Positions 1,377-53,686 of a stretch of 64,000 bases of DNA are shown in pieces. The stretch lies in the IMG/VR virus record IMGVR_UViG_3300027730_000005, one strand, 5' to 3'. A model generated the notes under the pieces. That model ran no database searches and was not told where the DNA came from. It was given only the letters and a program-made list of their open reading frames with translations. The position numbers were made by a program, and so were the translations under genes. Position 1 is the stretch's first letter, and each line of letters opens with the position of its first letter. This DNA comes from a virus. Taxonomy: Duplodnaviria > Caudoviricetes.

Positions 1377-1724
1377 TTAAACGCTGCGATCTTTTTTCAT
1401 TGCGGATTGTGCGGCTTGTGCTACAATATCTTGTGCTTGATTAACTGGCATGGTGACTGGTCCAGGCTTATCGCCACCTTTGAATATTAGTTCTGTAGCG
1501 TCGGGACTCATTGGCTCAATCAAACCACTCAATGGAGGTTGTCCAATTAAGGTTTGCAAAGTGTCGGGAGTGATATCTACGCCCATACTTTGTGCTCGAT
1601 TGATAAATGCCTGCACTGGCATTTGCATCTTGGCAGAAGTGTCTTGTGCTCTACCCACAGCAAACTTGGCCAAGGCCATGAGTTTGTCTGCGGTAGCATC
1701 TGCTTCTACTTCGTTGATTCGCAT
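1377..1724 (-). CDS. Hypothetical protein
   Basis: 115-aa ORF, start overlaps upstream stop; N-terminus MRINEV. Confidence 0.75.
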   Translation of the reverse strand: MRINEVEADATADKLMALAKFAVGRAQDTSAKMQMPVQAFINRAQSMGVDITPDTLQTLIGQPPLSGLIEPMSPDATELIFKGGDKPGPVTMPVNQAQDIVAQAAQSAMKKDRSV

Positions 1725-2623
1725 TATCTGCGCTCGCGTCCTAGTGCTGCGGCCGGTGCGGCTGCACCTGGTTCAACGGCTGCTATTTCAATTTCTTCTT
1801 CGCCTGGCGCAGGACCTGCTAGTCCCATATCTCCTTCTGGAGGGGACATACCTGCATCGGCTCCTGGCATTTCTACAGGACCTTGCCCAGTTACAACACC
1901 CAATGCTTGTTCTAGCTGTTGCTTGCTGCTTTGCAAATTCTGCACTAGACCACTCAATGCCGCTTGTGCATCACTGTTAAACTGTGCAGCTTGGTTAGCC
2001 CCAATTTGATTCTTGATCGAATCCACTAATGCTGGCAATTCTTTGAATTGCATCTCGGTGCTGTCTTCAATCATGTCTTGCAGTTTGTCAACCATATCTT
2101 GTGCGGCCAATACAACTTGAGCTTGTTGCACTTCACTTTCGCTGAGATAGTAACCGTAGCCTTGCGCACGTAATCGAAGTTTGGTTTCTTGTACCGAAGT
2201 AGTGGTGTTAATACTGTTGAGTTCGTTCTGCTTATCAGTTACTTGTTTTTTCAAATCGTCAAGTTCTTGTTGCACCTGCTTTTTTTGATCCATCTTTTGC
2301 TTCACAGCCATAGCAGCGGCCTGTTGAGGATTTACACCAGGAGCTGCTCCTGGTGCAGTAGTTGCGACCATTTCGGCTTCGTAGATCTTTTCAGCTAATG
2401 CTTGTTCCATCATCATGAGCTTGAGATAAGCTGGATTCTTTTGGCTGGTATGACGAGCAGAACTGCTGCGCACTTCACTTAACACACCTCGTACCTGGCG
2501 ATACATGTTATGCAGTTGTTTGCGATTCAAAGTATCAAAGTTGACCGATTGATCAAAATGACTTTCAAATACTTTAGAGATTTGTCGTGTAGGGCGTGTT
2601 ACGGCCAATTCGTTTAGTTTCAT
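1724..2623 (-). CDS. Hypothetical coiled-coil late protein (possible head/scaffold-associated)
   Basis: 299 aa, TAAATA at 2647-2652 plus GAGG SD; internal (I/V/L)xE motifs (IYEAE, VQET, LSESE). Confidence 0.75.
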   Translation of the reverse strand: MKLNELAVTRPTRQISKVFESHFDQSVNFDTLNRKQLHNMYRQVRGVLSEVRSSSARHTSQKNPAYLKLMMMEQALAEKIYEAEMVATTAPGAAPGVNPQQAAAMAVKQKMDQKKQVQQELDDLKKQVTDKQNELNSINTTTSVQETKLRLRAQGYGYYLSESEVQQAQVVLAAQDMVDKLQDMIEDSTEMQFKELPALVDSIKNQIGANQAAQFNSDAQAALSGLVQNLQSSKQQLEQALGVVTGQGPVEMPGADAGMSPPEGDMGLAGPAPGEEEIEIAAVEPGAAAPAAALGRERR

Positions 2624-3065
2624 TTGAGTTTCCTCGTAGTTGCCAGTATTTAGCCAAATTTATACATTTTGCTAGTTCTTTTTCTAGGACCTGAGTATAT
2701 TCTTGCCTAGCACTTGTTTTATTAATCAAGTTTTCCCATGTGTTTCCGGCTGTGCGATCAGCCAATGCACGACGTACATATATGTCATTGCGCAATCTAA
2801 CGACAGATTGATCTAATTCTTTTATTTGTCTAGCCAAGTTGAAATGATGTAGATTATCTGCTATGCACCAAGCCAATGCAGATTTGGTAGCAGAAAATGT
2901 GCCAATCTCATCATCACGCTGACAAACTTGAAATCCTGCAGGTACAGGGTATATGGTGTATTTGCCAAATACTCGATACTTCTTGCCATCTTCTATAATT
3001 ACTTTGTTTAAAAGCAGCGGCAACTCTTGTTCTGCTAATGCAGCCAATTTACGACTGGCTTTCAT
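2574..3065 (-). CDS. Hypothetical protein
   Basis: Track ORF 2574..3134; more likely start is ATG 3065 (MKASRKL), an ATGA overlap with the upstream stop. Confidence 0.7.
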   Translation of the reverse strand: MKASRKLAALAEQELPLLLNKVIIEDGKKYRVFGKYTIYPVPAGFQVCQRDDEIGTFSATKSALAWCIADNLHHFNLARQIKELDQSVVRLRNDIYVRRALADRTAGNTWENLINKTSARQEYTQVLEKELAKCINLAKYWQLRGNSNETKRIGRNTPYTTNL

Positions 3066-3322
3066 TTGAATACGTAGTTTGTTAGCATCCAACCCACAGT
3101 GGCCACAAGGAATCCAATTATAGCTATTCCCCACCCAACGAGTTGATCATTACGTTTGGCTGACATGGTATGCACCATTTCATGCACTGACTCTACCATG
3201 ACTTTTACCGATTCGATTCCTGATTCAACAGTTTGAATTTTGAGTTCTAGCATGCGATAACGTTCGGCACAAAGCTCAACGTGCGCCTCTAAACTTTTCT
3301 TCTCGATGTCTGTGGTGTCCAT
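3062..3322 (-). CDS. Coiled-coil protein with single C-terminal TM helix (XhlA/holin-like)
   Basis: Heptad-rich N-terminus then LVGWGIAIIGFLVATVGWML; TAAATA 4 nt before ATG. Confidence 0.6.
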   Translation of the reverse strand: MDTTDIEKKSLEAHVELCAERYRMLELKIQTVESGIESVKVMVESVHEMVHTMSAKRNDQLVGWGIAIIGFLVATVGWMLTNYVFK

Positions 3323-3325
3323 GAG

Positions 3326-3736
3326 TTATTTATGGTTCAACGGTTCAAACCAGATGTTAACATCTGGACGTAGTAATGTAGTCAATTGTTGCTCAACATA
3401 GTTAATGATAGGTACACCATCGCAGGCTTGTCGTAATCTTCCCACAGGATCATTTTCCACTGCAAACACATCATCAAATTCTGTATCAAACTCAAATTGC
3501 CAACGTTGGTCTTTGATTCTCACACGAGACACTCGTACTGGTTGTGTGTAAAGACCAATCAACTGCATGATAGTTTCCCAGTTGCGTTGTTGGTTACGAC
3601 TGCGAACCCATGTGGATACGTCAGTTACTTGCTGCCCCAGCTGATCCGTAAACGGCAGCAAATTTTCTCTTAGATGTCCGGTAACTCCAGTGGGTCTGCA
3701 ATCAAAGTCAGTGGTTATTTGTATACTCAATGTCAT
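3326..3736 (-). CDS. Hypothetical protein
   Basis: 136-aa ORF with TAAATA 4 nt upstream. Confidence 0.75.
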   Translation of the reverse strand: MTLSIQITTDFDCRPTGVTGHLRENLLPFTDQLGQQVTDVSTWVRSRNQQRNWETIMQLIGLYTQPVRVSRVRIKDQRWQFEFDTEFDDVFAVENDPVGRLRQACDGVPIINYVEQQLTTLLRPDVNIWFEPLNHK

Positions 3737-3751
3737 ATGGTATTTACGACC

Positions 3752-3780
3752 AAAAAAAAGCCCTGGAAATAAACCAGGGC
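3752..3780 (-). terminator. Rho-independent terminator
   Basis: GCCCTGG/CCAGGGC stem followed by T8 on minus strand, downstream of 3805..4236. Confidence 0.85.
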
Positions 3781-3804
3781 CTTGATTTTTGCTACCGCTT
3801 AGAA

Positions 3805-4236
3805 TTAAGTCGGAGCAAAGTTGGTTGCGCTTGTGACAAACACAGCATTACCTGCGCATGAGCTCAATTCCAGGTTCTGACCACCTGAAGCCACAGTAGC
3901 ACTGGTATTAGCAGTAGCTAGCAATGTGACGTTGGTGTAAGCACCTGTGGGATACACAGCCAAGTTCAACACTGTAGGTGCTGCTGGGCTAACTTGATAC
4001 ATGGCCACTGTGGCTTTGGTCTGAATAGCTTGCATCAGGTTGTTGATGTAGCCATTGACGTTACCGGATGTGGTCAATGAACCATTGGCTACCAAGCTGA
4101 AAAAGTCCAGCTTAGGGCCTTGGAAGTTAACTGAGCCTGTGGCTGCAATGTTAGCTGTACCTTGAATGTTACCATTCGCAGTGTCCATGTGGAATACTGG
4201 TTGTGTAGTTCCGTTTACTCTTGTAAATACTGCCAT
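3805..4236 (-). CDS. Small Ala/Thr/Asn-rich probable virion protein
   Basis: Own late box (4275-4280), AGGAG SD and terminator; beta-rich composition. Confidence 0.65.
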   Translation of the reverse strand: MAVFTRVNGTTQPVFHMDTANGNIQGTANIAATGSVNFQGPKLDFFSLVANGSLTTSGNVNGYINNLMQAIQTKATVAMYQVSPAAPTVLNLAVYPTGAYTNVTLLATANTSATVASGGQNLELSSCAGNAVFVTSATNFAPT

Positions 4237-4296
4237 TTTAAAATCTCCTAGTTAGTGGGTTTTTGCCCTACACTTATTTATGAATTTGGCAAAAAA

Positions 4297-6273
4297 TTAG
4301 GCAGTTGGCGGATTGTTTCTGGCTTTATTTCGAGCAGTAAAATCAAACCTATTCACTGCTTTGCCATAGCCTGCAGGGGTAGCAAATACCCATCCTTCGT
4401 TGCCGGGCACTTGCGTATCCAGCTGCGACAACAGATCTAGTTTTAAATCATGCAATAGTTCAAACAACAAGAATGCAGCAGCCAAGGCCTGTTCATTTGA
4501 AGTAGGGCTACGCAGGTATTGTGCAATGTTGTTTACTTTCTGCGGAGTTTGAGTTTGTTGTAACCATGATAAAAATCCTGGAACTAGATCACTGAAATCA
4601 CCAGTATACGCAGCATGATTTGGATCCACACGTTTGTTAATATAATCCACTGCCAATTTGGCCAAGTCGGTTATTTTCATAGCACGTAGTTCAGTGGGAT
4701 TAAACAACGTATCCAATACTGCACGATTCTGACGTAACAGTGTTTTGATCTGTTTGACTATGGCATCGTTCTTTGGTACAGGTTTGGCGTAGATAGGTTC
4801 AATCAGCAACAATCCTGGCACAGGATTAAACTTGACTCTACTGAGTGGTTGTTTGGACGCACCTGCATCTTCATACATGGTATGTACTGCCACACCCACA
4901 TCGCTGTTGGCAATTTGCTGTCCTAGCTTGCTACCAGCAGGAATACGATACTGTACTGTGTTAGGTTGGAATACTAAATTTCCAGCCTCCACAGGCGGGG
5001 TTTGTGTGTATAACAGATCACCTTTGACAAAACCACGAAAGTTGGTAGGGGTAGCTGCTTCAAGATATGGCCAAATAGTTTGATATACTGGTAGTAATGT
5101 GTTTACTCTAGTGGCTGCATTACCTTTGGCTGCTGCATTGGCATCTCTGCGAGCCATATCGTCAGCGATGGCATCCGGACTGGTAAACAATCCGTCATAT
5201 CCGGCGGCAGTGAATCCTGCATCATCTGTAAGCACAAACTCGCCGGTCTCGGGCTTTCTACCAAATACCACAGCAGGTTTACCGTCCCATTTTACTGATC
5301 CAGTTTTGGAATTTTCATAGAATGAATCTGCAATAGCCAATGCTCGATCCACACCCGCAGTGCCCTGGCGGAACACATAGTCTTCTAGGTGTTCAATACC
5401 CTTGGCTTTGCCGCCGATTGCAGCAGGTTCTTGCTCGTACAGTTGATATATTTTCTTGGTTTCAATCAACGGCATCATGCCTTGATTTACAATTCTATCA
5501 CGTAGTCTTGCCAAAAAGTTAACATCATTTTCCTTGACTGTGGTAGTAGGCTCCTGAAGTTCTTCACGTGCCAGATATTCGCGGAAGTCTGCTAGCTTGG
5601 TATCTCGTGAAGGGTCTTGTGCCAATGCAGCATAAATGGATTCTACATTCTTTAGATTCTCACGGTCGGCACCTTGCCCTAGCAGCACACTTGCCACGTA
5701 GTCAGGATCCATACCACCATCCACTAGCTGATTTGTGGTGCGAGAGAACATACCATTGGCACCCACTTTGAGTCCCAGTTGCTTGGCTATGCTGCTCATT
5801 AGCACATTGCGGTTCATTCCTTTGTATGCAGAATCTGTGCCGCCAGCATAAAAGAATTGGCCCCAATCCAAATTAGGGAAAAACATAAAATCTGTTTGTA
5901 CAAAGCCTTTGTTGGAATCGCCTGCAATAGGTGTTCGCAAGTGTACTTCGCCGCCCTTTTTGACCCACTCTCTAGGATCAAGTTCTTGACTCTGCACAAA
6001 CTGTGTGAGAATAGCAGCCAATTGTTCTTTGCTGATCTCATTGAGATCCACAGCTAGATCCAAATCGCCTGATGTGGGCTTTTTACCTGTGCTGCCCAAC
6101 CAACGTAGTGGTATGCCATCTGACCCTTTTTCTGTAGTAAAGTCTATACCGGTGACTTGTTCGATCCAATCAATTGTGGCTGGCACATCTTGCAGATTGA
6201 TACGTTGGGTTAATGACTCACCCGATTTGGTTTTGAATACGTTGCCACCTTCAAGTAGCTGTTTAATTTGCAT
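4297..6273 (-). CDS. PolX/pol-beta-like nucleotidyltransferase fused to an ATP-dependent ligase-fold (KxDG) domain
   Basis: LGSTG...GDLDLAVD (G60,S61,D70,D72), VQTDFM (D128); C-half KWDG (K328), VKGDLLY, EGWVF...GKAVNR resembling ligase motifs I, III, IV, V. Confidence 0.7.
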   Translation of the reverse strand: MQIKQLLEGGNVFKTKSGESLTQRINLQDVPATIDWIEQVTGIDFTTEKGSDGIPLRWLGSTGKKPTSGDLDLAVDLNEISKEQLAAILTQFVQSQELDPREWVKKGGEVHLRTPIAGDSNKGFVQTDFMFFPNLDWGQFFYAGGTDSAYKGMNRNVLMSSIAKQLGLKVGANGMFSRTTNQLVDGGMDPDYVASVLLGQGADRENLKNVESIYAALAQDPSRDTKLADFREYLAREELQEPTTTVKENDVNFLARLRDRIVNQGMMPLIETKKIYQLYEQEPAAIGGKAKGIEHLEDYVFRQGTAGVDRALAIADSFYENSKTGSVKWDGKPAVVFGRKPETGEFVLTDDAGFTAAGYDGLFTSPDAIADDMARRDANAAAKGNAATRVNTLLPVYQTIWPYLEAATPTNFRGFVKGDLLYTQTPPVEAGNLVFQPNTVQYRIPAGSKLGQQIANSDVGVAVHTMYEDAGASKQPLSRVKFNPVPGLLLIEPIYAKPVPKNDAIVKQIKTLLRQNRAVLDTLFNPTELRAMKITDLAKLAVDYINKRVDPNHAAYTGDFSDLVPGFLSWLQQTQTPQKVNNIAQYLRSPTSNEQALAAAFLLFELLHDLKLDLLSQLDTQVPGNEGWVFATPAGYGKAVNRFDFTARNKARNNPPTA

Positions 6274-6508
6274 TGCTGCGCCTCACTGTTCTTGCAAACT
6301 TACTTGTATCACGAGTACGGATAGCATTGAGTAATTTGCGTGTTAAATTTTCTGCTTGTTCCTGTGTGTACGAAGCATCAATCTGTTCTAATAGATTGAT
6401 TGCACCGGCAATGATATTTGCAGCACGACTCTCTATCACTAGGTCGCGTTCACGCTCAATGTACATAGAATCTAATTCTTCTAATAGACTACGAGTTCGT
6501 TTCTGCAT
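6263..6508 (-). CDS. Hypothetical protein
   Basis: 81-aa helical ORF overlapping start of 4297..6273; TAAATA upstream. Confidence 0.7.
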   Translation of the reverse strand: MQKRTRSLLEELDSMYIERERDLVIESRAANIIAGAINLLEQIDASYTQEQAENLTRKLLNAIRTRDTSKFARTVRRSNAN

Positions 6509-6572
6509 ATGGATAAAGGCCTTTGGATTATTTATTTAAATTTGCACATACAACTTATTAATTAAATACCTG

Positions 6573-7616
6573 ATGAACAACTACTTTTGCGTTTTACCTT
6601 GGTACAGTCAAGAACTAGGATCTCAAAATAGTCCATGTTGCCTATTGCCGGACAAATACAATATTAATCAAATAAAACAAGATTTGCTCAATAACATTCC
6701 ATCTGTAGATTGTAAAAAATGTTGGGATATAGAATCCACTGGAAACAAAAGTCGCCGTCAATTTGAGAATGAATTTTTAGACTATAAATTGGATAGAGAT
6801 TTAGATAAGATTCAACAAGATTGTGCAGACTTAAAACATCAAACTTTACTTTATCAAATAACCACTAGTAATCTGTGTAATCAGGCATGTGTGAGCTGTG
6901 ATAGCAGCTTATCAACTAAATGGGCGCAGATTGAAAAACGCATGGACATAATTCCTAAATCTCAATATCAAATTGAATTAGATCCAACAATTATCAATTA
7001 CAGTTCAGCAAAACGAATTTCTTTGCTGGGCGGCGAACCGTTATTTGACCCTAAGACTTTTAAAATATTACAAAACTTAATTGACCACAATAACACTAAT
7101 TGTTTTATATCATTGATCACCAATGGCAGTATACATCTAAACATACAACAAATTGACTTACTGAAGCAGTTTAATGATTTGAATATTTGTATCAGCATTG
7201 ATGGCATTGGTACTGTATTTGAATACATGAGATGGCCCGGAAAGTGGAATAACCTACTAGAAAATATTAAACAGTACAAAAACATAGCAAAAAATATCAG
7301 TGTAAGCTACACAATTAGTTCATTGAATGCTATGTACTATAACGAAACTGTTGAGTGGTTTCAACAGAATAATCTAACATACAATCACAATGTTGTTTCA
7401 TCTCCAGAATGGCTATCACTAGCAAACATGCCAACCATACTAAAACAACACTTAACTCAACAAGATAATTTTATCAAAATGTATTGTAAGCCCAATGGAT
7501 GTGAGATAGATTTAAAAATCCTAACACAAAATATTGTTAAACAAGACCATGCAAAAAAAATAAACATCAAAGACTATATGCCTGAACTAGCTGCTGTTAT
7601 TTTTGATACTGTATAA
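6573..7616 (+). CDS. Radical SAM protein with N-terminal SPASM/twitch-like cluster
   Basis: CVLPW...PCC...CKKCW; CNQACVSC; GGEPL; ITNGS; ISIDG; EYMRWPGKW. Confidence 0.9.
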   Translation: MNNYFCVLPWYSQELGSQNSPCCLLPDKYNINQIKQDLLNNIPSVDCKKCWDIESTGNKSRRQFENEFLDYKLDRDLDKIQQDCADLKHQTLLYQITTSNLCNQACVSCDSSLSTKWAQIEKRMDIIPKSQYQIELDPTIINYSSAKRISLLGGEPLFDPKTFKILQNLIDHNNTNCFISLITNGSIHLNIQQIDLLKQFNDLNICISIDGIGTVFEYMRWPGKWNNLLENIKQYKNIAKNISVSYTISSLNAMYYNETVEWFQQNNLTYNHNVVSSPEWLSLANMPTILKQHLTQQDNFIKMYCKPNGCEIDLKILTQNIVKQDHAKKINIKDYMPELAAVIFDTV

Positions 7617-8715
7617 ATTCAGCAACTTCAGGGAATACTGCTGTCATGTTTAAGTTTCTGCGATGATCATTTTTTTGTAACTCTTCCAGTACTCTTGTTA
7701 AATTGTATTGTTGTGATCCTAGAATTTTCAATTGTTGTATCCAAGGTTGGCAGTAATTGGATTGAGATTTAAAATACTCAATCATTGCATTGGGCATGGA
7801 CTCTAGTCCGATGGACTCTAGTCCGTAAATTCCAAATGCTTGATGTGTGTATATTTCTATATCGTCACCAAATACAGATTTTGAAAAGTTTTGTTCATGC
7901 CAGTTGTACACATTATTAAGACTTAAAACATTTAAAATGCTAGCAGTCACAGTCAATGACAACATGCTGTTGTGAGGTAAATTTTTCTGCCACCACAATA
8001 AATTTTCTTCAACTTTATCCCATTTAGCTGGATATCGCAAATACTCAAATTGATTACCAATCTCGTCGATACTGAAACTTATTCGAGCAAACTTAAATTT
8101 TTCAATAAGTTCTTTTGTTGATTGATCTATGCGTTGGGTACCATTAGTGTTGTACATTAATTTGATTTGGCTAACATCTGTATGATCAACTAGGTGTTGT
8201 AATATTTGTTTATGAGTTAATGTTAAAAATGGCTCGCCTCCCCACATACGAAGTTCTCGCAAATTTGAAAGATCGAGAGCCTGCAATTTTGTTTTTATAA
8301 AATTGTCAATGTTAGGCCTAACATTGAGGCCTTTTATCCCAAGTTCTTTTCTCCAGGTGGTACTTAGCTCCGGGCCGCATGTTACACAAGCCAAATTACA
8401 AGTATAGTCAATATTAACGTCAAGGTATTGAATGCCTGGATCATGTGTTTCTGCACCATGGGTTTCAAGGTAACCTACCCGCATGCTTTTTTTATTTGTC
8501 TCTTCTTGAGCAATACATTTAGAACAAAAAGATTTTGGCAAAATATTTTGTTGATTTTTAACACGCAGTTGGATTAGATCTGGGTGAAAAAAATCAACAT
8601 GATCCGAAGTTTGAATTAACTGGTTTGCCCAACAACATGCCGAGTATGATACTGATTGTTTGTCAATTTTGGCTAGCATAAGCCCATGATGTATCCTAGG
8701 GCAGTATTTGCTCAT
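7597..8715 (-). CDS. Radical SAM protein with N-terminal SPASM/twitch-like cluster
   Basis: CPRI...ACC...CSKC; CNLACVTC; GGEPF; NTNGT; SID; EYLRYPAKW. Confidence 0.9.
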   Translation of the reverse strand: MSKYCPRIHHGLMLAKIDKQSVSYSACCWANQLIQTSDHVDFFHPDLIQLRVKNQQNILPKSFCSKCIAQEETNKKSMRVGYLETHGAETHDPGIQYLDVNIDYTCNLACVTCGPELSTTWRKELGIKGLNVRPNIDNFIKTKLQALDLSNLRELRMWGGEPFLTLTHKQILQHLVDHTDVSQIKLMYNTNGTQRIDQSTKELIEKFKFARISFSIDEIGNQFEYLRYPAKWDKVEENLLWWQKNLPHNSMLSLTVTASILNVLSLNNVYNWHEQNFSKSVFGDDIEIYTHQAFGIYGLESIGLESMPNAMIEYFKSQSNYCQPWIQQLKILGSQQYNLTRVLEELQKNDHRRNLNMTAVFPEVAEFIQYQK

Positions 8716-38555: not shown

Positions 38556-40127
38556 TTACCTCACCATTACAGAGATAAAGGGCATGGGTTCAATCACTTC
38601 TTCTCCATGATCTCGCATCTGTGTGCTTAATTCAGCATAGAAACTTTGCAGTATAGTAAGCATACGAACAGCTAATATAGTGGCCATTATAAGGTCGTCT
38701 GTTTCACCAATTTTGGCGGCATAACTTGTGCCATGTGCCACAAAGTTCTTAAGCTCGCTGATCAAGCTCTTGCTGTTAATGGTCATTCTCCCCGATTCTA
38801 TCAGATTTTTCAATTTACTACAAGCAGCCAACTTGGTTTTGTTTGTGGTGTTAAATCCTTTGCGGAATCTACGTGTACCTGGGCCAGTGGTATCACTAAG
38901 AAAATATCCTTTGATGTTCTCTTCACCCCATTCAGCAATAGAAATCAATGCTGCTTCGCCAATGGTATTGTTTTCTACTGAATAGTAAATGCTTTTCTCA
39001 TCGCCCACAGTATCATATATGTGTTTGATAATATCCTTTAAGATACGTATCTGCTCTGGAATAGGTGTTTTGTTATGTCGCCATTCACCAACTTGACGTG
39101 TGGTGTTGGCTTCAAATATCTGTATAGCGGCGGGGTCTCCACCTGTTCCCAAGCTGGGATCTAATGCCACAACGTACACTTGATCTCGGCGTATGGGTTC
39201 ATACCAACGCACTTGCCCAGTCTTGTGTATAGGATCAATCCCAGTGAGATCTAACAATTTGGCAGGTGCTATTAAAGTCTCATCATTGATAATGAATTCA
39301 CAATTCATCTCACGACGGAATCGATCATCGCCCAACTGCGCTCGCATATTATCGCCCCAGGCTTGATCACGATCTGGATGTTCTTCCCAATAGCTGCGAT
39401 AGGCTTTGAATCCATTCATACCCAGCTCAGTGGGATTGCCATATTCATCTTCACATTTGTTGGCCCCTTTCCACAAGTAAGCAAACTGGTCCTCGTCTGA
39501 ATTGGGGGTTGATGTGATAATAGCTTTACCACCTGTGGCCAGTGTGGGCGATATACTTGTCCAAAACTCTTTGGCAATAGTAGGACGCACATAAGCAAAC
39601 TCGTCGGCGTACAGCAAGGTAATACTCATACCACGACCAGTTGTTTCAGTTGTGGTAGCTGAAACTATTCGGCTACCGTTTTCAAAGTCTATGGATCCTT
39701 TGTTGTAGTTTGTGGCACCTGCTCGTATGTGATCAGGGCACAACTCATAAGCAAATCTTATTCGTTGCATGATCTCTTGAGCGCCGGTGTATTTGTGTGC
39801 TGCTATCAAGATAGTGGAATCAGGTACAAACATAGCGTACCAAAGTATGTAACCTGCTGCTGATGTTGATTTGCCGGTCTGTCGCGGCATCATGGAGATT
39901 GAATATCTGTTGTGATGATATGTATCAATCAGGTTCTTTTGATATTCAAAAGGATGATACAGCATCTTGCCCTGTGTGGGGTGCTGGATATAGAAGAAGT
40001 TGTCCATGAAGTAGTGTGGCCCTGTATCAGGGTCAGCACATTTCAAAAATTCGTCTAGTTCTTCTTCGGTAAATTTCTGACGACGATGTGGTGCCTTGAT
40101 CAGCACCCCTTCAATTGGTTTTGCCAT
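38556..40127 (-). CDS. gp17: Terminase large subunit (T4 gp17 type)
   Basis: RQTGKS, LYADEFA, ITSTPN, nuclease LDPSLG, DDLIMA. Confidence 0.95.
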   Translation of the reverse strand: MAKPIEGVLIKAPHRRQKFTEEELDEFLKCADPDTGPHYFMDNFFYIQHPTQGKMLYHPFEYQKNLIDTYHHNRYSISMMPRQTGKSTSAAGYILWYAMFVPDSTILIAAHKYTGAQEIMQRIRFAYELCPDHIRAGATNYNKGSIDFENGSRIVSATTTETTGRGMSITLLYADEFAYVRPTIAKEFWTSISPTLATGGKAIITSTPNSDEDQFAYLWKGANKCEDEYGNPTELGMNGFKAYRSYWEEHPDRDQAWGDNMRAQLGDDRFRREMNCEFIINDETLIAPAKLLDLTGIDPIHKTGQVRWYEPIRRDQVYVVALDPSLGTGGDPAAIQIFEANTTRQVGEWRHNKTPIPEQIRILKDIIKHIYDTVGDEKSIYYSVENNTIGEAALISIAEWGEENIKGYFLSDTTGPGTRRFRKGFNTTNKTKLAACSKLKNLIESGRMTINSKSLISELKNFVAHGTSYAAKIGETDDLIMATILAVRMLTILQSFYAELSTQMRDHGEEVIEPMPFISVMVR

Positions 40128-42179: not shown

Positions 42180-42548
42180 TTAGTCGTCTACGGAACCGTC
42201 TCCGCCAGCATCAACTTGTAAAAGAGACGCTATTCTGCGGCGCAGTTGATTCATATCATCCTCGCTGTGAATTTGCGTTGTAGAGTATTCCTGTTGTGTT
42301 TCTGCATTGTTGTTACTTTGGCTAAGACTCAAATGATGTGCAGGAACACAACCGTCTTGATCAGGAACATTTGGCGAGTAGATGTTGTTTACATCCACTG
42401 CTTTTTTTAATAGTTCTAATTTGAGTTGCAATGGTGGAACAAATCGTTGAGGTGCTAGATCACCTTCATTGCTGCCACTTTCCGCTGATGATTGTCGTTC
42501 CAGATCAATCACATCGGCCAAGTTTCTTAAAAGTTCAGCAATTTTCAT
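42180..42548 (-). CDS. Hypothetical protein
   Basis: MKIAELLRNLAD; FVPPLQLKLELLKK. Confidence 0.7.
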   Translation of the reverse strand: MKIAELLRNLADVIDLERQSSAESGSNEGDLAPQRFVPPLQLKLELLKKAVDVNNIYSPNVPDQDGCVPAHHLSLSQSNNNAETQQEYSTTQIHSEDDMNQLRRRIASLLQVDAGGDGSVDD

Positions 42549-42555
42549 AATATGA

Positions 42556-42939
42556 TTACCTTGGATAACCGTTGAAGGCTTTTACAGGACTTTGATGATT
42601 TACCAATGAAGGCTCTAAGCTGTTTGGCGTGCTTACTTGTATTTTTTTACTAGGTAGTCCTGCCATTTTTAACGCTTGATCAATTACTGGTTCAACGGAA
42701 TTATCAAACCCAGCCACAACTGCATGCTCGCCAAATGCTGTCTCTGCTGTCCAGACTGGCATGTTGGGGATTTTGTCTGTGCCAGCATCGCTTCTAGCAC
42801 GGGCCATAGCTACACCAAATCTATATATCTGATACGGATCGGAGGAATTTACACCAGGCAACACAAACACATGATTCATAGGATCTGCTTGCTCTGACGG
42901 TAAATTTTTTTCTTCAGTAATAAACTCTCGGGCTCTCAT
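42556..42939 (-). CDS. Probable internal head protein (paralogue of 42936..43304)
   Basis: MRAREFITE resembles T4 internal-protein capsid-targeting sequence; ends SPVKAFNGYPR. Confidence 0.6.
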   Translation of the reverse strand: MRAREFITEEKNLPSEQADPMNHVFVLPGVNSSDPYQIYRFGVAMARARSDAGTDKIPNMPVWTAETAFGEHAVVAGFDNSVEPVIDQALKMAGLPSKKIQVSTPNSLEPSLVNHQSPVKAFNGYPR

Positions 42940-43304
42940 CTAGGATATCCTTTGAATCCTTTTACAGGACTCACTGTGCTGGTGCTGGGTATTTCTTGAC
43001 TGCGAAGATCACCTTTGTTGAGATCCCGGAAGTCAGTTCCTACGGCCTTGTAGGCCAGTTTCAACATGTCAGCTTCTATTGGTGTGTAAGGTGCAGCGAT
43101 GTCATTCCTCCCAGCCCAGGATTCACCGTCTATGTCCGGAGGAGTGACTCCATCTGTGCTGGCCACTGCCATCATAACACGATTTAATACATACGCTCGA
43201 TCTGCTACATCAGAAAATTTGTGTAATCCCACAGTGGCAAAACTTTTTGTTTTGCTGAGTCGGCCTACTTTTTGACCTTCTGATATAAACTCACTGGCTC
43301 GCAT
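42936..43304 (-). CDS. Probable internal head protein (paralogue of 42556..42939)
   Basis: MRASEFISE; ends SPVKGFKGYPR. Confidence 0.6.
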   Translation of the reverse strand: MRASEFISEGQKVGRLSKTKSFATVGLHKFSDVADRAYVLNRVMMAVASTDGVTPPDIDGESWAGRNDIAAPYTPIEADMLKLAYKAVGTDFRDLNKGDLRSQEIPSTSTVSPVKGFKGYPR

Positions 43305-50043: not shown

Positions 50044-50082
50044 ATTTGTAATCTCCTATGCAGTTATTTACCTCTGTTGAGG

Positions 50083-50130: not shown

Positions 50131-53100
50131 TTAGATAGAAGCTTGTGTTGCACTCTGTGAGTCAGCAATTGCACCAGTTGCCTTGATACGCAATGGAATA
50201 TAGATAAATTCCACAGCCTTCACAGGTTCAATAGCAATATCCACCCACAACTCGTTGGCATCAATTCTAGCAGGTGTGTTGTTTGAATCATCACAGATTA
50301 CCAAGAAATCATAGATACCACGCTTGGCCACAAGATCAATACACAATCCATTTATGGCATTGGCAATTTCATTACGAGTGATTTGATCATTGGGTTCAAA
50401 CAAGAATTGTTTGCCAATTTCATCTAACCGACCACGCATGAACGCAATCAGTCGTGCCACGTTAATACGATCCAATGCACTGGTAACACCGTAGATGGTC
50501 TTGTTACCAAAGTTGGTAATGCCCACACCAGGTACGAATGTGATTGGGTTGATTTTGTTGAAATACTCAACGTCACGTAGACCTTGATTATTACCAATTG
50601 TAACAAACTCACCTGTGATAGAATTAATATATCCAATTCTAACAGCATTGTCAATCACACCACGACGTGTTCCAGCTGGCGCCAACCATGGATAGCTAAC
50701 CGAATCACTGCGGATAATGGTACGTACCATCATGTGGCTAGCAGCAGTAACCACAGCACTTCCACCAAGGTCGGTAGTCTGGCAACTTGGATAGAACACT
50801 GCGGCATATGGAGTACTGGTGGTCAGCCCATCTTCTGCAAATATTCCATTACCACTGTTGTTTGTGGCCCAGGCGGCAATATCTGTAGCATTTGATCCCA
50901 GTCTCATTGGTGTATCACCCACTACAAATAAAGTGTTATTGCGTTCATTGCTGAGTGCTACCATGTTAGGAATCAATTCAGGATATGCAGTACAAGCTGC
51001 CAAATTGAATTGTGCTTGTTCTTCACGTGCTGTAACACTGGTATCAATGCCCGATTTCAGTGCAGCCACAATCAATGCACGTTGAGCAAAACGTCCCATG
51101 TACGGAGACCCATCAGCTCTGTTACTAGATGCAGTTACCCATGAATTGGTTTCCAACACATCCCAGAATGAAGTTTGTGTCTCTGGATTTTGATTAGTAC
51201 CGGCTTGAATGGCCACATACAATACTGCATTATACAATACTTGATCGCCTACTGCATAGGTTGTAGAACTAGACCATGTTGGGTAGCTGAAACTGCTGGC
51301 ATTGAAATAGTCAACTTGAAAACTTTTGACATTATAACCTGATCGGCGTGTGTTCCACAACAACATCCCGTCGGGGAACAGTGTAGGATCTGGTGCATCT
51401 ACATCTAGATAGTTGCTGGTCAACAAGCTGGTGATTGAAGGCAAATTGTCAGAAATAGGATTTGCTGTTCCTGTTGTGCTCCAACGAGCGTCTTCAAACA
51501 AAATACCATTTGAGGTTTGTTGATCAGTATTGTCCAGTGTTACCCATTGATTTACACCATCAACTGCTTGCCAACGATTCAACAATGGATATAGTTCAAG
51601 ATTGCTAGTATCTACCCATAAGTCACCGTATACCAACACAGTACCATCTGTTTGAGTAGTAGGTGCAGTGGCCGAAATAATAGGACCAGTTGGATTGGTA
51701 TTGCTTAGATTGTAACCACGTGTGTCGTTGGTATCATTCTGATATCCTACCCATTCAGACCCATTGTTGATCATGATGTCAACTTGACTAGGGCTACTGT
51801 AATACCAGTAGGTTCCGTCAGCAGGATCTTGATCTGGAGCCACAGCACTGGCTGTGTAGCTTAATGGAACCCAGCCACTGAGTTGTAAGTAAGCAGTTTG
51901 ATCGTCATTGACAATATTACGGCAACCTGTGGTGCTGGTTGTGAATCCAGCAGCCGCCAATGGAGTTCCTGTAACGTTTTGCAACAGAATAACACCACCC
52001 TGAGTTTGTGTCAGAACAATTGCACCAGCTGAAGTAACCGACGCTACAACATTTGAAAAACCTGCTGAACTCACAGCAGTATTAAATGCTGCTGCATCAG
52101 TACCCGTGATAGTCACTGTCACGGTGGAAGTCAAATTGGTAGAGTTTGGAATGCTTGTGGTGATAGTAAATTGATTACCGTTCACAAATGTAGGAACCGC
52201 CACACTACCTGTAACAATTGTAGCACCTTGACTGGCTCGCTCAAACACCTGTAATGTGTAGGTGTTGTTGTATGGGTACGCACCAACGGTACTAACAGCA
52301 GGATTCACGTTGTATTGTGTATAGGTACTGCCAACTGCAATATTTTTGCCACCGCCAGTGGCATCCAATGCAGCATTAGCACTCCAGTCATTTTCGTAAA
52401 CTGGAGCAGCTTGTTGTACCCAACTGCCTAATGCTGTACTGTATTTTTGCACTACCATTAATGTGCCTAGATTTTGCGCAGTGATCTTGTTCCACACACT
52501 ACCTGTAGGACGTGGTGTTGTATCTGTAGACAACCAACGAGGAAATGTGTAATTAGGACTTTGTTGCAGTGCTGGAGCATAGTATGTGACATCTGCTGTG
52601 ATACCCAGGGTAGTCAACAATCCAGGAGTTGACCCAGTTGAAGTGATTACAATTGCACCATCATCAGCTGTGGATCCGTCGGCTGTGGCTGTGCTGTTGG
52701 CAAACAAGCAAAGTTTATTGCTGATAACTGCTGAATACACTCCAGTGATCGCAGCACTATTAATGGCTGCACTGAGTCCTTGTATAGTGTTGTTTGTTGA
52801 AACAGGCACTGCTACAGTTGTACCGTTGATCACAATGGTATTCCCAGCTGTGAGTGTAGCAGTCACAGCGTTGGCACCTTGAATTGTGGGATAGCTTAAT
52901 TTCCATTCGTCGCTGCCCACTAGAACCCAATTGTTATACAAGTTAGTCAACGTGGTAGAGTTACCAGTGGCAACTGTGGCCACTGCACCATTTTTATAGT
53001 ACAATGGATTTTGAACATTAGTAGCAACAATAGCATAACCGTTGATGGTACCATAATCTTGCAACGGCACACCATTTAGCAATTCAGTTGTACTGGTAAT

Positions 53101-53589
53101 AACTGAAGGAATCTGGTTGGAGAATGCTCCTGTGGTTTGATTCCATTCAAAAATACCCCATTGACTGGTTGCTGTATTCAGCCAGTAAGTGCCATTGTTG
53201 GGTTCGCCTGTGGGACGCACCAATGTGGCTGTAAGCTGAGTAAGATCAATATTCACACGTTGAACAAACGCACGATTGGTAACACCCAATGCACTGTACG
53301 CTGCCAACAATCCATATTCATTTAGTTCATATCCATTGATAGGAGTACCAATGGTAGTTTTGTAGAAAAACGGATTACCAAATGTAGCTGCAAGATCTCT
53401 CTGGCTGGTGATTTGATAAACACGGTTGGCATTGATTTCAAGTGTGCCTGCTGCTACACCAACACCACTGCCAGACGCCTTGTTCTGTGCTGTGGCGATA
53501 AGAAAATACGGTACTGAGTTGGTAGCAGCTGGAAGATATTGACTCTCATCAATTACCGATACTTCTACGCCTGGGGAGTCTAGAGCCAT
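50131..53589 (-). CDS. gp18: Contractile tail sheath protein, expanded (1152 aa)
   Basis: SPGVEVSVIDES, WLAPAGTRRG, INPITF, FGNKT, DRINVARL, FLFEPND, IEPVKAVEFIYI. Confidence 0.95.
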   Translation of the reverse strand: MALDSPGVEVSVIDESQYLPAATNSVPYFLIATAQNKASGSGVGVAAGTLEINANRVYQITSQRDLAATFGNPFFYKTTIGTPINGYELNEYGLLAAYSALGVTNRAFVQRVNIDLTQLTATLVRPTGEPNNGTYWLNTATSQWGIFEWNQTTGAFSNQIPSVITSTTELLNGVPLQDYGTINGYAIVATNVQNPLYYKNGAVATVATGNSTTLTNLYNNWVLVGSDEWKLSYPTIQGANAVTATLTAGNTIVINGTTVAVPVSTNNTIQGLSAAINSAAITGVYSAVISNKLCLFANSTATADGSTADDGAIVITSTGSTPGLLTTLGITADVTYYAPALQQSPNYTFPRWLSTDTTPRPTGSVWNKITAQNLGTLMVVQKYSTALGSWVQQAAPVYENDWSANAALDATGGGKNIAVGSTYTQYNVNPAVSTVGAYPYNNTYTLQVFERASQGATIVTGSVAVPTFVNGNQFTITTSIPNSTNLTSTVTVTITGTDAAAFNTAVSSAGFSNVVASVTSAGAIVLTQTQGGVILLQNVTGTPLAAAGFTTSTTGCRNIVNDDQTAYLQLSGWVPLSYTASAVAPDQDPADGTYWYYSSPSQVDIMINNGSEWVGYQNDTNDTRGYNLSNTNPTGPIISATAPTTQTDGTVLVYGDLWVDTSNLELYPLLNRWQAVDGVNQWVTLDNTDQQTSNGILFEDARWSTTGTANPISDNLPSITSLLTSNYLDVDAPDPTLFPDGMLLWNTRRSGYNVKSFQVDYFNASSFSYPTWSSSTTYAVGDQVLYNAVLYVAIQAGTNQNPETQTSFWDVLETNSWVTASSNRADGSPYMGRFAQRALIVAALKSGIDTSVTAREEQAQFNLAACTAYPELIPNMVALSNERNNTLFVVGDTPMRLGSNATDIAAWATNNSGNGIFAEDGLTTSTPYAAVFYPSCQTTDLGGSAVVTAASHMMVRTIIRSDSVSYPWLAPAGTRRGVIDNAVRIGYINSITGEFVTIGNNQGLRDVEYFNKINPITFVPGVGITNFGNKTIYGVTSALDRINVARLIAFMRGRLDEIGKQFLFEPNDQITRNEIANAINGLCIDLVAKRGIYDFLVICDDSNNTPARIDANELWVDIAIEPVKAVEFIYIPLRIKATGAIADSQSATQASI

Positions 53590-53686
53590 GTTATGGTTTC
53601 CTTTTCAAGTTACAGATATTTATCGGATGCCACCAAAAGTCACGGTGTTGCGGCTACCTTTGCAAAGGTTTACGGCTAAATATCAC

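Follow-up and report, generated by a model that had tools for sequence, protein, structure and literature searches.

Which enzymes are joined in a single long gene of an uncultured lake giant phage, on what polynucleotide would they act, and would they enter the host together with the phage DNA? The gene lies on the minus strand of a 64,000-nt stretch of DNA, analysed here as a whole and called the window (Caudoviricetes; IMG/VR record IMGVR_UViG_3300027730_000005). A first-pass annotation had read it as a PolX-like nucleotidyltransferase fused to a ligase-fold domain, possibly packaged in the head, cut into two enzymes and injected for RNA or DNA repair as a pre-armed counter-defence. The open reading frame, peptides and residue numbers that it gave are correct, as is the K328 codon at 5290-5292, all on the minus strand (Table 1). 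Based on structural models, we assign the two halves to two enzyme folds with high confidence; how such a protein may be used is weighed below.

Table 1. Features of the fusion gene and its upstream region (positions in the window)
Feature	Position	Strand	Remark
Whole ORF P0001, 658 aa, ATG start	4297..6273	-	PolX-like module + linker + DUF6267 ligase-like module
MQIKQLLE leader, residues 1-8, L-L-E right before conserved GGNVFK	6250..6273	-	candidate targeting/cleavage peptide
Minimal family-X polymerase-like module, residues 9-236	5566..6249	-	palm + thumb; without 8-kDa and fingers domains
GSTGKKPTSGDLD, residues 60-72, hGS...DxD nucleotidyltransferase motif (D70, D72)	6058..6096	-	conservation
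D128, third carboxylate	5890-5892	-	at least 90% conserved
Linker, residues 237-291, conserved helix FLARLRDRIVNQG, sites LQE241, VKE248, LIE271, LYE280	5401..5565	-	
DUF6267, ligase-type covalent nucleotidyltransferase domain without OB domain, residues 292-658	4300..5400	-	
K328-W-D-G, motif I, predicted nucleotidyl-accepting lysine	5281..5292	-	K328, D330, G331 invariant; loop between two strands in model
Helical insertion, residues ~503-618, between central sheet and motif IV	4420..4767	-	model secondary structure
E626-G-W-V ... K638-A-V-N-R642, motifs IV + V	4348..4398	-	conservation
81-aa ORF upstream of fusion gene	6263..6508	-	11-nt overlap with fusion gene start
TTTAAATAAATA, two overlapping NTAAATA late-promoter-like elements	6529..6539	-	20-24 nt upstream of 81-aa ORF

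The N-terminal half is a minimal PolX-like module

The N-terminal half (N module) is specifically PolX-like, of the DNA gap-filling type represented by ASFV Pol X, and is neither CCA-adding-like nor a member of the RlaP family. Its modelled palm superposes on Pol beta and is followed by the PolX-specific thumb (C-terminal subdomain); with this thumb it scores far above RNA-specific nucleotidyltransferases, which share the palm only. A BFVD fold search found giant-virus PolX, with CCA and poly(A) enzymes below significance. In an alignment of 62 sequences, G60, S68 and D72 are invariant, and D70 and D128 are at least 90% conserved. Because the module begins about 50 residues ahead of the GS motif, there is no room for the 8-kDa dRP-lyase or the fingers (HhH) domains; both are missing from ASFV Pol X too, which places the N module among the minimal family-X members. 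Sequence identity to ASFV Pol X is about 15%, and sequence searches of Pfam and the PDB gave no match for the module. The RlaP profile PF10127 matched neither residues 1-285 (hmmscan, E<=10) nor anything in the related contigs.

Both the PolX thumb and the missing PF10127 match speak against an RNA repair pair, in which the N module would restore the 3' nucleotides of nuclease-cut tRNA or other RNA and the C-terminal half would act as an Rnl-type ligase, countering anticodon nucleases or RNase defences. RlaP together with RNA ligase has been proposed to work in this way. We consider this alternative rather unlikely but serious.

The C-terminal half is a ligase-type module without an OB domain

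The C-terminal half (C module) corresponds to DUF6267, whose ligase-type nature was previously unrecognised. The nucleotidyltransferase fold is present, and the model matches ligases, which rank above capping enzymes throughout. Its best structural matches are RNA ligases (NgrRnl, REL1, Trl1, T4 Rnl2 and Rnl1), and among named AFDB clusters 'RNA ligase domain-containing protein' ranks first. Across 72 aligned homologues, K328, D330, G331, E626, G627, V629 and R642 are invariant, and K638 is conserved in at least 90%. The covalent nucleotidyltransferase motifs proposed earlier are supported for motifs I, IV and V, which are conserved and sit in the model's strands as expected. For VKGDLLY, proposed as motif III, the strand order of the model suggests another placing, in which FVLTDD (346-351) may be motif III and FRGFVKGDLLY motif IIIa.

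The protein ends 16 residues past motif V, and an OB-fold domain with motif VI is absent. To our knowledge, every known DNA ligase has an OB domain, so its absence here argues against DNA nick sealing. An Asp at +2 of motif I, as in KWDG, is a feature of DNA ligases, Rnl1 and Rnl3. The OB-less RNA ligases (T4 Rnl2, trypanosome REL1 and Naegleria Rnl5) show no sequence-level similarity to the C module, which differs from them further in carrying a helical insertion of about 115 residues ahead of motif IV. Sequence-level links to solved structures or canonical ligases were not found: PF01068 (ATP-dependent DNA ligase) gave no profile match to the fusion protein, and comparison of the C module with the phage group's own DNA ligase gave an hhalign probability of 0.1%. 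That canonical PF01068 ligase (455-462 aa) is present in 5/5 related contigs, 8-31 kb from the fusion gene, which rules out DUF6267 as the phage's only (replicative) ligase.

The RNA ligase matches, the missing OB domain and the possession of a canonical ATP-dependent DNA ligase by the phage group all favour an RNA repair pair. RlaP (PF10127) provides a precedent, as a Pol-beta nucleotidyltransferase that adds 1-2 NMP to damaged RNA and is found beside RNA ligases (PMC7824862; bioRxiv 10.64898/2025.12.29.696909); this family, treated by Burroughs and Aravind, Iyer et al. (2021, PMC7824862) and Carruthers et al. (2025 preprint), is widespread in jumbo phages. Both systems couple a Pol-beta-superfamily transferase to a ligase, and for RlaP the replacement of 1-2 nucleotides ahead of ligation has been predicted or shown. 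However, RlaP as described has a helical C-terminal domain where the phage N module has a PolX thumb, and the partner ligase in the phage is DUF6267 rather than Rnl1, Rnl2 or RtcB.

Linkage of the two modules across the family

The fusion query retrieved 1383 representatives at E<=1e-3, and domain linkage was surveyed in 150 representatives at 50% identity. N-C and C-N fusions as well as N-only and C-only proteins are all present among the 150. Such either-order fusions, found in many lineages, together with confident models, fold searches and invariant motifs, bear out the pairing of a Pol-beta/PolX-type nucleotidyltransferase with a ligase fold, and the fold check of each half gave the same result, PolX-like for the N module and ligase-type for the C module. 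The PolX-ligase family is abundant in lake metagenomes, whereas no N-C fusion with a leader turned up in the phage collection searched for cultured relatives.

The modules are also fused to NT5C/HAD phosphatase or CTP_transf_like (cytidylyltransferase-like) domains. The phosphatase fusions in some relatives, as seen with end-healing enzymes, would suit RNA repair. Against it, no polynucleotide kinase, cyclic phosphodiesterase or end-healing module was found fused or adjacent, although cuts by anticodon nucleases need healing, and no tRNA genes were found in the 64-kb window. Given the lack of an end-healing module and the PolX-like N half, the tRNA repair envisaged by the first-pass annotation survives as just one of two live options.

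Of 24 multidomain representatives, at least 10 have a HIGH-motif cytidylyltransferase-like domain fused or adjacent to DUF6267, as do cyanophages. This linkage, which no ligase pathway explains, and the large helical insertion would fit a KxDG module that is no polynucleotide ligase and passes its nucleotide to something else, such as a protein, a small molecule or a cap-like 5' end. It might act jointly with the cytidylyltransferase-like partner, and the N module would be a non-templated transferase. We regard this as very improbable, since capping enzymes score below ligases in all comparisons and fusion in both orders to a polymerase-type module fits consecutive steps on one polynucleotide.

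Gene neighbourhoods point in more than one direction. In favour of packaging, one C-N fusion adjoins terminase and Portal_T4 genes. The C-only gene of cyanophages lies among replication genes, next to gp41 helicase and MazG, the N-only gene of Atu_ph07 adjoins primase/helicase, and the fusion gene itself is 2.4 kb away from DnaB-like helicase and primase genes. These replication neighbours favour an unpackaged intracellular accessory of repair or replication (base-excision repair, gap repair or lagging-strand back-up), in which the h-x-E sites described below would belong to the structure or reflect a habit of linkers, and would not be cut by a protease; we judge this doubtful, at clearly less than even. 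In L093, a different Pol-beta-type nucleotidyltransferase gene abuts the C-only gene. In L093 and P-TIM40, hhalign ruled out that the gene upstream of C-only DUF6267 is an N module that has split off.

Probable late expression and conserved sites at module boundaries

The 81-aa ORF shares 11 nt with the beginning of the fusion gene and belongs to the same transcription unit; its PHROG match is phrog_11854, a 'virion structural protein' (E 1e-14). Neighbours of the fusion gene match 'virion structural' PHROGs; by tblastn these ORFs have no match in cultured phages, and comparison of the small upstream ORFs across loci found no homology. The flanking 81-aa and 143-aa ORFs equal EST35_0230 and EST35_0232 of PA5oct in length, without similarity, and synteny with PA5oct was rejected. 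In the window, 33 of the 41 TAAATA copies sit 3-70 nt upstream of ORF starts, those of the tail tube and sheath genes among them. For TATAAATA, the late promoter of T4, no enrichment was seen, the shorter NTAAATA being the recurrent element. Judged from these sequence elements, expression of the fusion gene appears to be late. The late-type promoter element and the structural neighbours weigh against an unpackaged enzyme.

The T4 internal proteins IPI, IPII, IPIII and Alt carry a capsid-targeting sequence (CTS) and are cleaved by gp21 at (L/I)-x-E. Sites of this type had been noted in the fusion protein, and that claim stands in part. The protein as a whole has no excess of (L/I/V)xE (8 versus 6.6 +/- 2.3 in shuffles), but 4/8 fall in a 42-residue linker, and the recurrence of such sites at module boundaries is, at the sequence level, far above chance family-wide. 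Ahead of GGNVFK, E occupies -1 in 75/78 N-module representatives and L/I/V occupies -3 in 75/78, internal modules included. An h-x-E lies within 25 aa upstream of the C module in 101 of 105 cases (at an offset of 6-8 in 67) and within 30 aa downstream of it in 23 of 24 multidomain proteins. Linkers of 36 N-C fusions contain 5.4 sites per 100 aa, compared with 1.26 elsewhere. Leaderless M-GG variants of the N module occur, and so the h-x-E motif is no part of the module fold. Alternatively, the conserved motif could be a structural cap that each module has kept from its ancestor. Yet it precedes two folds that are unrelated and also follows the C module, with leaders that vary in length and sequence, which argues against a structural feature or linker habit.

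The leaders themselves are less uniform. Residues 1-10 of the fusion protein have a pLDDT of 58. Read off the T4 genome, the T4 CTS is MKTYQEFIAE/A (slashes mark cut sites, in the window candidate ones). Other proteins of the window, small ones among them, begin with T4-like CTS leaders (MRASEFISE/G, MRAREFITE/E and MKLNELAVTRPTRQISKVFE/S), which again disfavours an unpackaged enzyme. A regular expression in the T4 register matched zero family leaders. A CTS one residue shorter matched 31/140 representatives versus 5.8% of background ORFs, in a post hoc comparison whose background hits are largely neighbours of the gene. Like the T4 internal proteins, the fusion protein has a short N-terminal leader ending in h-x-E, comes from a phage with EFIxE leaders elsewhere in the window, and is apparently late. 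In contrast to them, what is packaged would be a 72-kDa polyprotein of two enzymes with further sites inside it, and MQIKQLLE is shorter and only loosely CTS-like.

Mass spectrometry of virions also speaks for packaging: PA5oct EST35_0231, an N-only homologue, is annotated 'structural protein, ESI-MS/MS' (PMC7318152). On the other side, the same virion proteome held seven 'virion-unrelated enzymes', this virion-detected homologue has no leader, and the cyanophage and Atu_ph07 versions are likewise leaderless, as would suit an unpackaged enzyme. A T4-type prohead protease (PF03420) and a Gp23 capsid protein (PF07068) were not found in five related contigs, as would also suit an unpackaged enzyme; these contigs are 29-75% complete and the control genomes gave no signal for either family, so that this negative tells little. 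The packaging and cleavage proposed by the first-pass annotation thus gain indirect support from the h-x-E boundaries, the CTS leaders of the window, the late-type promoter and the PA5oct detection, and lose some from the protease gene not being found; on sequence evidence, we put the chances of packaging and cleavage at about even.

Discussion

We propose that this gene encodes a late-made polyprotein of two enzymes, whose catalysis, substrate, cleavage, packaging and ejection we infer as follows. The first module (residues ~9-236), of ASFV-PolX size, would add nucleotides to a 3'-OH by means of D70, D72 and D128, and the second (~292-658) would be adenylylated at K328 and then seal the remaining nick, so that together they would fill and seal polynucleotide breaks. 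Gapped or nicked duplex DNA is the most likely substrate and broken RNA the main alternative: the PolX likeness points to DNA, whereas the lack of an OB domain in the ligase, together with the RlaP precedent, points to RNA. With T4-type (L/I/V)-x-E sites ahead of each module, the most likely life cycle is one in which the polyprotein would be loaded into the prohead, split by the head protease to set both enzymes free (candidate cuts LLE8/GG and, in the linker, VKE248, LIE271 and LYE280) and delivered with the DNA. Repair activity would then be on hand before expression of any phage gene. For the whole chain, from a late two-enzyme polyprotein through packaging and cleavage to fill-and-seal repair, we see the odds as evenly balanced.

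In ASFV, base-excision repair is carried out by Pol X (174 aa) together with the virus's own DNA ligase. The phage fusion differs in holding both predicted activities in one polypeptide, and in that its ligase partner is DUF6267, without an OB or DNA-binding domain. Bacterial LigD likewise contains a polymerase and an ATP-type ligase module in a single polypeptide, and relatives of the fusion that add an NT5C/HAD phosphatase would match its three activities (ligase, polymerase and phosphoesterase). However, the LigD polymerase is archaeo-eukaryotic primase-type rather than PolX-like, its ligase has an OB domain, and LigD works with Ku in non-homologous end joining.

Of the 467 phage records that contain DUF6267, 453 belong to cyanomyoviruses. 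No homologue of the g30 ligase has reportedly been recognised in these viruses, with a distant one left possible (PMC2984593), and in P-TIM40, which has DUF6267 (gene 182; gene 160 in Syn1), no PF01068 or PF01653 ligase was detected. A tentative and on balance unlikely extension of our proposal is that DUF6267 is a new OB-less polynucleotide ligase family, serving some phages as part of a capsid-delivered, protease-released PolX-ligase kit and cyanomyoviruses, in its leaderless form, as the missing replisome DNA ligase. As a predicted ligase, DUF6267 gains a testable function.

According to a 2022 review on the DNA polymerases of phages, ASFV is the sole viral example of family X (PMC8775771). 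With a PolX-like module that is widespread in phages, phage biology would gain a further polymerase family. The two modules may also be a source of compact polymerase and ligase enzymes. If the kit is delivered by the capsid, the incoming genome or host RNA would be mended before phage gene expression. There is recent evidence that ligases of phages weaken the effect of cuts by restriction and CRISPR systems (bioRxiv 10.64898/2026.09.21.753257), which an injected repair machine, if true, would complement. The polyprotein, if packaged and cut, would thus represent a new principle of counter-defence, in which a phage injects a repair machine instead of an inhibitor.

The fusion gene and its distribution

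The 658-codon frame that the first-pass annotation placed at 4297-6273 is open, on the minus rather than the plus strand; its product, P0001, contains all the peptides quoted there, and the K328 codon does occupy 5290-5292. The window derives from an uncultured jumbo myovirus and, besides a large terminase and a tail sheath, encodes a gp32-like SSB, a UvsX-like recombinase, a DnaB-like helicase, a primase and several radical-SAM proteins. Megablast of positions 3000-8000 against 50,697 phage records returned no match. Relatives of P0001 are nonetheless very common in metagenomes (more than 3,800 matches among 8,000 candidates scored), full-length ones (638-675 aa, 68-97% identity) lie on contigs of up to 343 kb, and IMG/VR holds 454 related loci. 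Pfam names only the C-terminal part, as DUF6267 (E 4e-29), a family mentioned in no paper found by our literature search. The PHROG matched by P0001 is of unknown function, and PDB sequence searches were empty.

We ran HMMER exhaustively over 1.84 billion cluster representatives and recovered 1383 proteins at E<=1e-3. Mapping both halves onto the best 150 of these revealed two independent modules, N (residues ~5-240) and C (~290-655, DUF6267). N-C is the commonest order; each module also occurs alone and within longer proteins, and six relatives have the reverse order, C-N (P0136, P0144, P0152, P0184, P0194, P0261). Fusion in either order is a classic mark of two activities sharing one pathway. 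Additional domains recognised by Pfam in relatives are NT5C (a HAD phosphatase), DUF2608, DUF5661 and CTP_transf_like. In P0136, P0192 and P0214, a third, unnamed module follows DUF6267 and starts h-x-E↓GGWL-x-P-x-LTS, the same boundary motif as that of the N module (h-x-E, an (L/I/V)-x-E triplet as cut by the T4 prohead protease gp21; the arrow marks the putative cut).

A PolX-like N module and a ligase-like C module

The AlphaFold model of the N module, built from an alignment of 62 diverse N modules, has a mean pLDDT of 91. Foldseek against the PDB gave 64 matches at E<=1e-3, the best 50 of which are all family-X polymerases, and in the key control, an unbiased structure search of 48,161 chain representatives, the first ten rows are again all family X. 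Matches in the viral structure-model database BFVD are uncharacterised phage homologues, followed by giant-virus PolX. Across the alignment G60, S68 and D72 are invariant and D70 and D128 at least 90% conserved; the local sequence, LGSTGKKPTSGDLDLAV, is spaced like the GS...DxD segment of Pol beta. The PolX-like character proposed for this half is thus upheld by both fold and motif residues. Like ASFV Pol X, the module has no space for 8-kDa or fingers domains, and its model suggests that it is a minimal family-X polymerase. Searched against Pfam at E<=10, it matched neither RlaP (PF10127), a Pol-beta-type nucleotidyltransferase linked with RNA ligases, nor any other family.

The C-module model, from an alignment of 72 sequences, reached pLDDT 94 and pTM 0.90. 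Foldseek against the PDB gave it only weak matches, the best at E 0.03, nearly all of them to DNA or RNA ligases; in the unbiased structure search, ligases take all of the top 25 places, with 142-193 residues aligned. Among AlphaFold DB clusters, unnamed relatives come first; the best cluster with a name, at E 1.2e-5, is an 'RNA ligase domain-containing protein'. Two 'cytidyltransferase-like domain-containing' proteins also match, in each case over the first ~400 residues. The model places motif I (K328-W-D330-G331) in an inter-strand loop, motif IV (E626-G627-x-V629) on a strand, and motif V (K638 and R642) on the strand after it. The ligase fold anticipated for this half is borne out, with motifs I, IV and V in place. 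E297, D298, G414, Y442, H464 and K611 are also invariant. The module differs from known ligases in a ~115-residue helical insertion (~503-618) ahead of motif IV and in lacking an OB domain, since P0001 ends 16 residues past motif V. Because a profile-profile alignment to the canonical ligase of the phage group found nothing, it is by fold and motifs, not sequence statistics, that we would place the C module in the covalent-nucleotidyltransferase superfamily.

Genomic context and nucleotidyltransferase partners

Features of the window and of two cyanophage loci
Feature	Coordinates	Strand	Remarks
Gene next to the 299-aa protein gene	1377-1724	-	follows the 299-aa gene; starts MRINEVEAD
299-aa protein gene	1724-2623	-	downstream of the fusion gene; phrog_14154, 'virion structural protein'
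81-aa ORF	6263-6508	-	end overlapped 11 nt by the fusion gene; matches a 'virion structural protein' PHROG
TTTAAATAAATA	6529-6539	-	upstream of the 81-aa ORF
Two radical-SAM genes	6573-8715		convergent; between the fusion operon and the helicase gene
Large terminase	38556-40127
Three tandem small ORFs	42180-43304	-	122, 127, 122 aa; start MKIAELL, MRAREFITE↓E, MRASEFISE↓G
TAAATA copy	50065-50071	-
Tail sheath	50131-53589
TAAATA copy	53617-53623	-
Cyanophage P-TIM40, DUF6267	3983-6247		directly followed by a cytidylyltransferase-like gene
Cyanophage Syn1, DUF6267	3477-5233		directly followed by, and overlapping, a cytidylyltransferase-like gene

The element (N)TAAATA occurs 41 times in the window; in 33 cases an ORF start follows 3-70 nt downstream, those of tail sheath, tail tube and terminase-adjacent genes among them. 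We interpret it tentatively as late-promoter-like and related to T4's TATAAATA; several copies lie only 3-7 nt from a start codon, a spacing that a simple -10 element fails to explain. Only 2.4 kb separates the fusion gene from those for helicase and primase, and a replicative helicase is likewise near the N-only gene of Atu_ph07 and the C-only genes of P-TIM40 and Syn1. The first radical-SAM gene is AT-rich (GC 0.35 in 6001-8000, against ~0.42 elsewhere).

We searched five related IMG/VR contigs, 29-75% complete. Each encodes a canonical ATP-dependent DNA ligase (455-462 aa) at a distance of 8-31 kb from the fusion gene, which rules out DUF6267 as this phage's sole ligase and makes a specialised role likely. 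None of these partial contigs (29-75% complete) yielded an NAD-dependent ligase, RlaP or a separate Rnl2-type ligase, the PF09414 matches being the same loci as those of PF01068. A separate cytidylyltransferase-like gene is present in all five, 9-77 kb from the fusion gene (~17 kb in the closest relative).

DUF6267 is partnered with a HIGH-motif nucleotidyltransferase in at least 10 of 24 multidomain representatives, and by a neighbouring gene in P-TIM40 and Syn1. A domain of this kind (FPGSFKPPHKGH-type) follows DUF6267 in P0142, P0149, P0153, P0158, P0161, P0173, P0232, P0264 and P0271. To our knowledge, no known ligase pathway explains the pairing. At a C-only locus (L093), two other Pol-beta-superfamily nucleotidyltransferase-like genes (3261-4022 and 5306-6004) precede DUF6267; one, with the motif TGS-x10-DVD, has a 4-nt overlap with the start of DUF6267, and the other bears a weak likeness to AbiEii. 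Different nucleotidyltransferase families thus serve as partners of the ligase-like module.

A tblastn search with P-TIM40 DUF6267 matches 467 phage records, and in 354 the match spans 80% or more of the query. Synechococcus or Prochlorococcus phages account for 453 of the 467; the matching genes are nearly always annotated 'hypothetical protein' and are often adjacent to one annotated 'cytidyltransferase'. Neither PF01068 nor PF01653 has a match in the complete P-TIM40 genome. Clokie et al. (2010) found no g30 ligase homologue in cyanomyoviruses and left unrecognised distant homologues possible (PMC2984593). DUF6267 is a candidate for this 'missing' ligase, although its OB-less architecture and HIGH-motif partnership urge caution.

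Proposed cleavage and packaging

The gp21-type cleavage sites proposed for P0001 are weak evidence when taken alone (8 triplets, against 6.6 +/- 2.3 in shuffles), but h-x-E recurs at module boundaries throughout the family. With the caveat that representatives are homologous and such counts are not independent events, Glu at -1 and Leu, Ile or Val at -3 precede the conserved GGN(V/I)FK in 75 of 78 N-module representatives, both in N-terminal modules and in those that lie hundreds of residues into a longer protein. Leaders of N modules span 5-29 aa (for example MLLTE, MKLLNE, MRFTEFKTTLLE and MRFNELRKPILSE). Under the same caveat, 101 of 105 C modules have an h-x-E in the 25 residues before the conserved R-I-x-H-x-E-D, at offset 6-8 in 67 of them (as in LTE↓GAR-IEHPED), and 23 of 24 multidomain proteins have one in the 30 residues that follow the C module; linkers of 36 N-C fusions hold 5.4 triplets per 100 residues vs 1.26 elsewhere. 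Stand-alone C modules have leaders such as MRLFEFTQPLME↓APAR and MRFFEFKQIVNE↓VEAR.

The triplet could instead be a structural element of each fold. Leaderless N modules exist, however, starting M-GG or M-SG (two representatives and the Atu_ph07 and PA5oct proteins), so the triplet is dispensable for the fold; leaderless C modules start MSR-IQH or, in P-TIM40, MAKNTH-LEHLED. That one short signal recurs ahead of two unrelated folds, behind leaders that vary, points to a putative shared processing or targeting signal more than to structure peculiar to each fold.

The T4 capsid-targeting sequence (CTS), read from the T4 genome, is MKTYQEFIAE↓A in IPII and IPIII and MKTFKEFTSTTTPVSTITE↓A in IPI. 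Two of the tandem small ORFs, starting MRAREFITE↓E and MRASEFISE↓G, match its EFIxE core; the three ORFs have no PHROG match and look like internal-protein genes. The 299-aa protein starts with a 20-residue leader, MKLNELAVTRPTRQISKVFE↓S, resembling that of IPI. Its leader and that of the gene after it are conserved in many related IMG/VR loci. The EFIxE-type and IPI-like leaders suggest that a T4-type leader system operates in this phage. MQIKQLLE↓GG, the leader of the fusion itself, is shorter than the T4 CTS and resembles it only loosely.

As independent hints, a C-N fusion adjoins terminase and Portal_T4 genes, and the PA5oct N-module homologue, EST35_0231, is annotated as virion-detected by ESI-MS/MS. 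As a caveat, this homologue is leaderless, and the PA5oct virion proteome comprises 93 proteins, seven of them 'virion-unrelated enzymes' (PMC7318152). PF03420 and PF07068 were not found in the related contigs (29-75% complete). Overall, we regard packaging plus cleavage of the fusion protein as an evenly balanced proposition.

DNA or RNA as substrate

We consider DNA somewhat more likely than RNA as the substrate. In favour of DNA, the N module resembles PolX specifically, has its thumb, which holds the nascent base pair, and is similar in size to ASFV PolX; the gene lies near replication genes, and leaderless DUF6267 is near-universal in cyanomyoviruses. An RNA substrate would fit the RNA ligases that top the C-module structural list (by less than 1 Z unit), the lack of an OB domain, the canonical DNA ligase already present in the phage group and the HAD phosphatase fused in some relatives. 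It also has a precedent in the association of the Pol-beta-fold transferase RlaP with RNA ligases: RlaP is predicted, in a jumbo-phage survey, to add 1-2 nucleotides to damaged RNA ahead of ligation (PMC7824862), and this addition has now been reported (preprint 10.64898/2025.12.29.696909). Repair of tRNA in particular is disfavoured by the lack of a kinase or cyclic-phosphodiesterase module and of RlaP or CCA-type features in the N module.

A 2022 review of phage DNA polymerases lists no phage family-X polymerase (PMC8775771). The jumbo-phage survey describes RlaP plus Rnl1, Rnl2 or RtcB, and searching it by term turned up neither PolX nor family X (PMC7824862). All the parts are of known kinds: PolX, the ligase superfamily, polymerase-ligase fusions (LigD) and CTS-directed head proteins. 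What would be new is their combination, namely a probable phage PolX, a putative OB-less ligase family with a helical insert, and likely capsid delivery as a protease-cut polyprotein.
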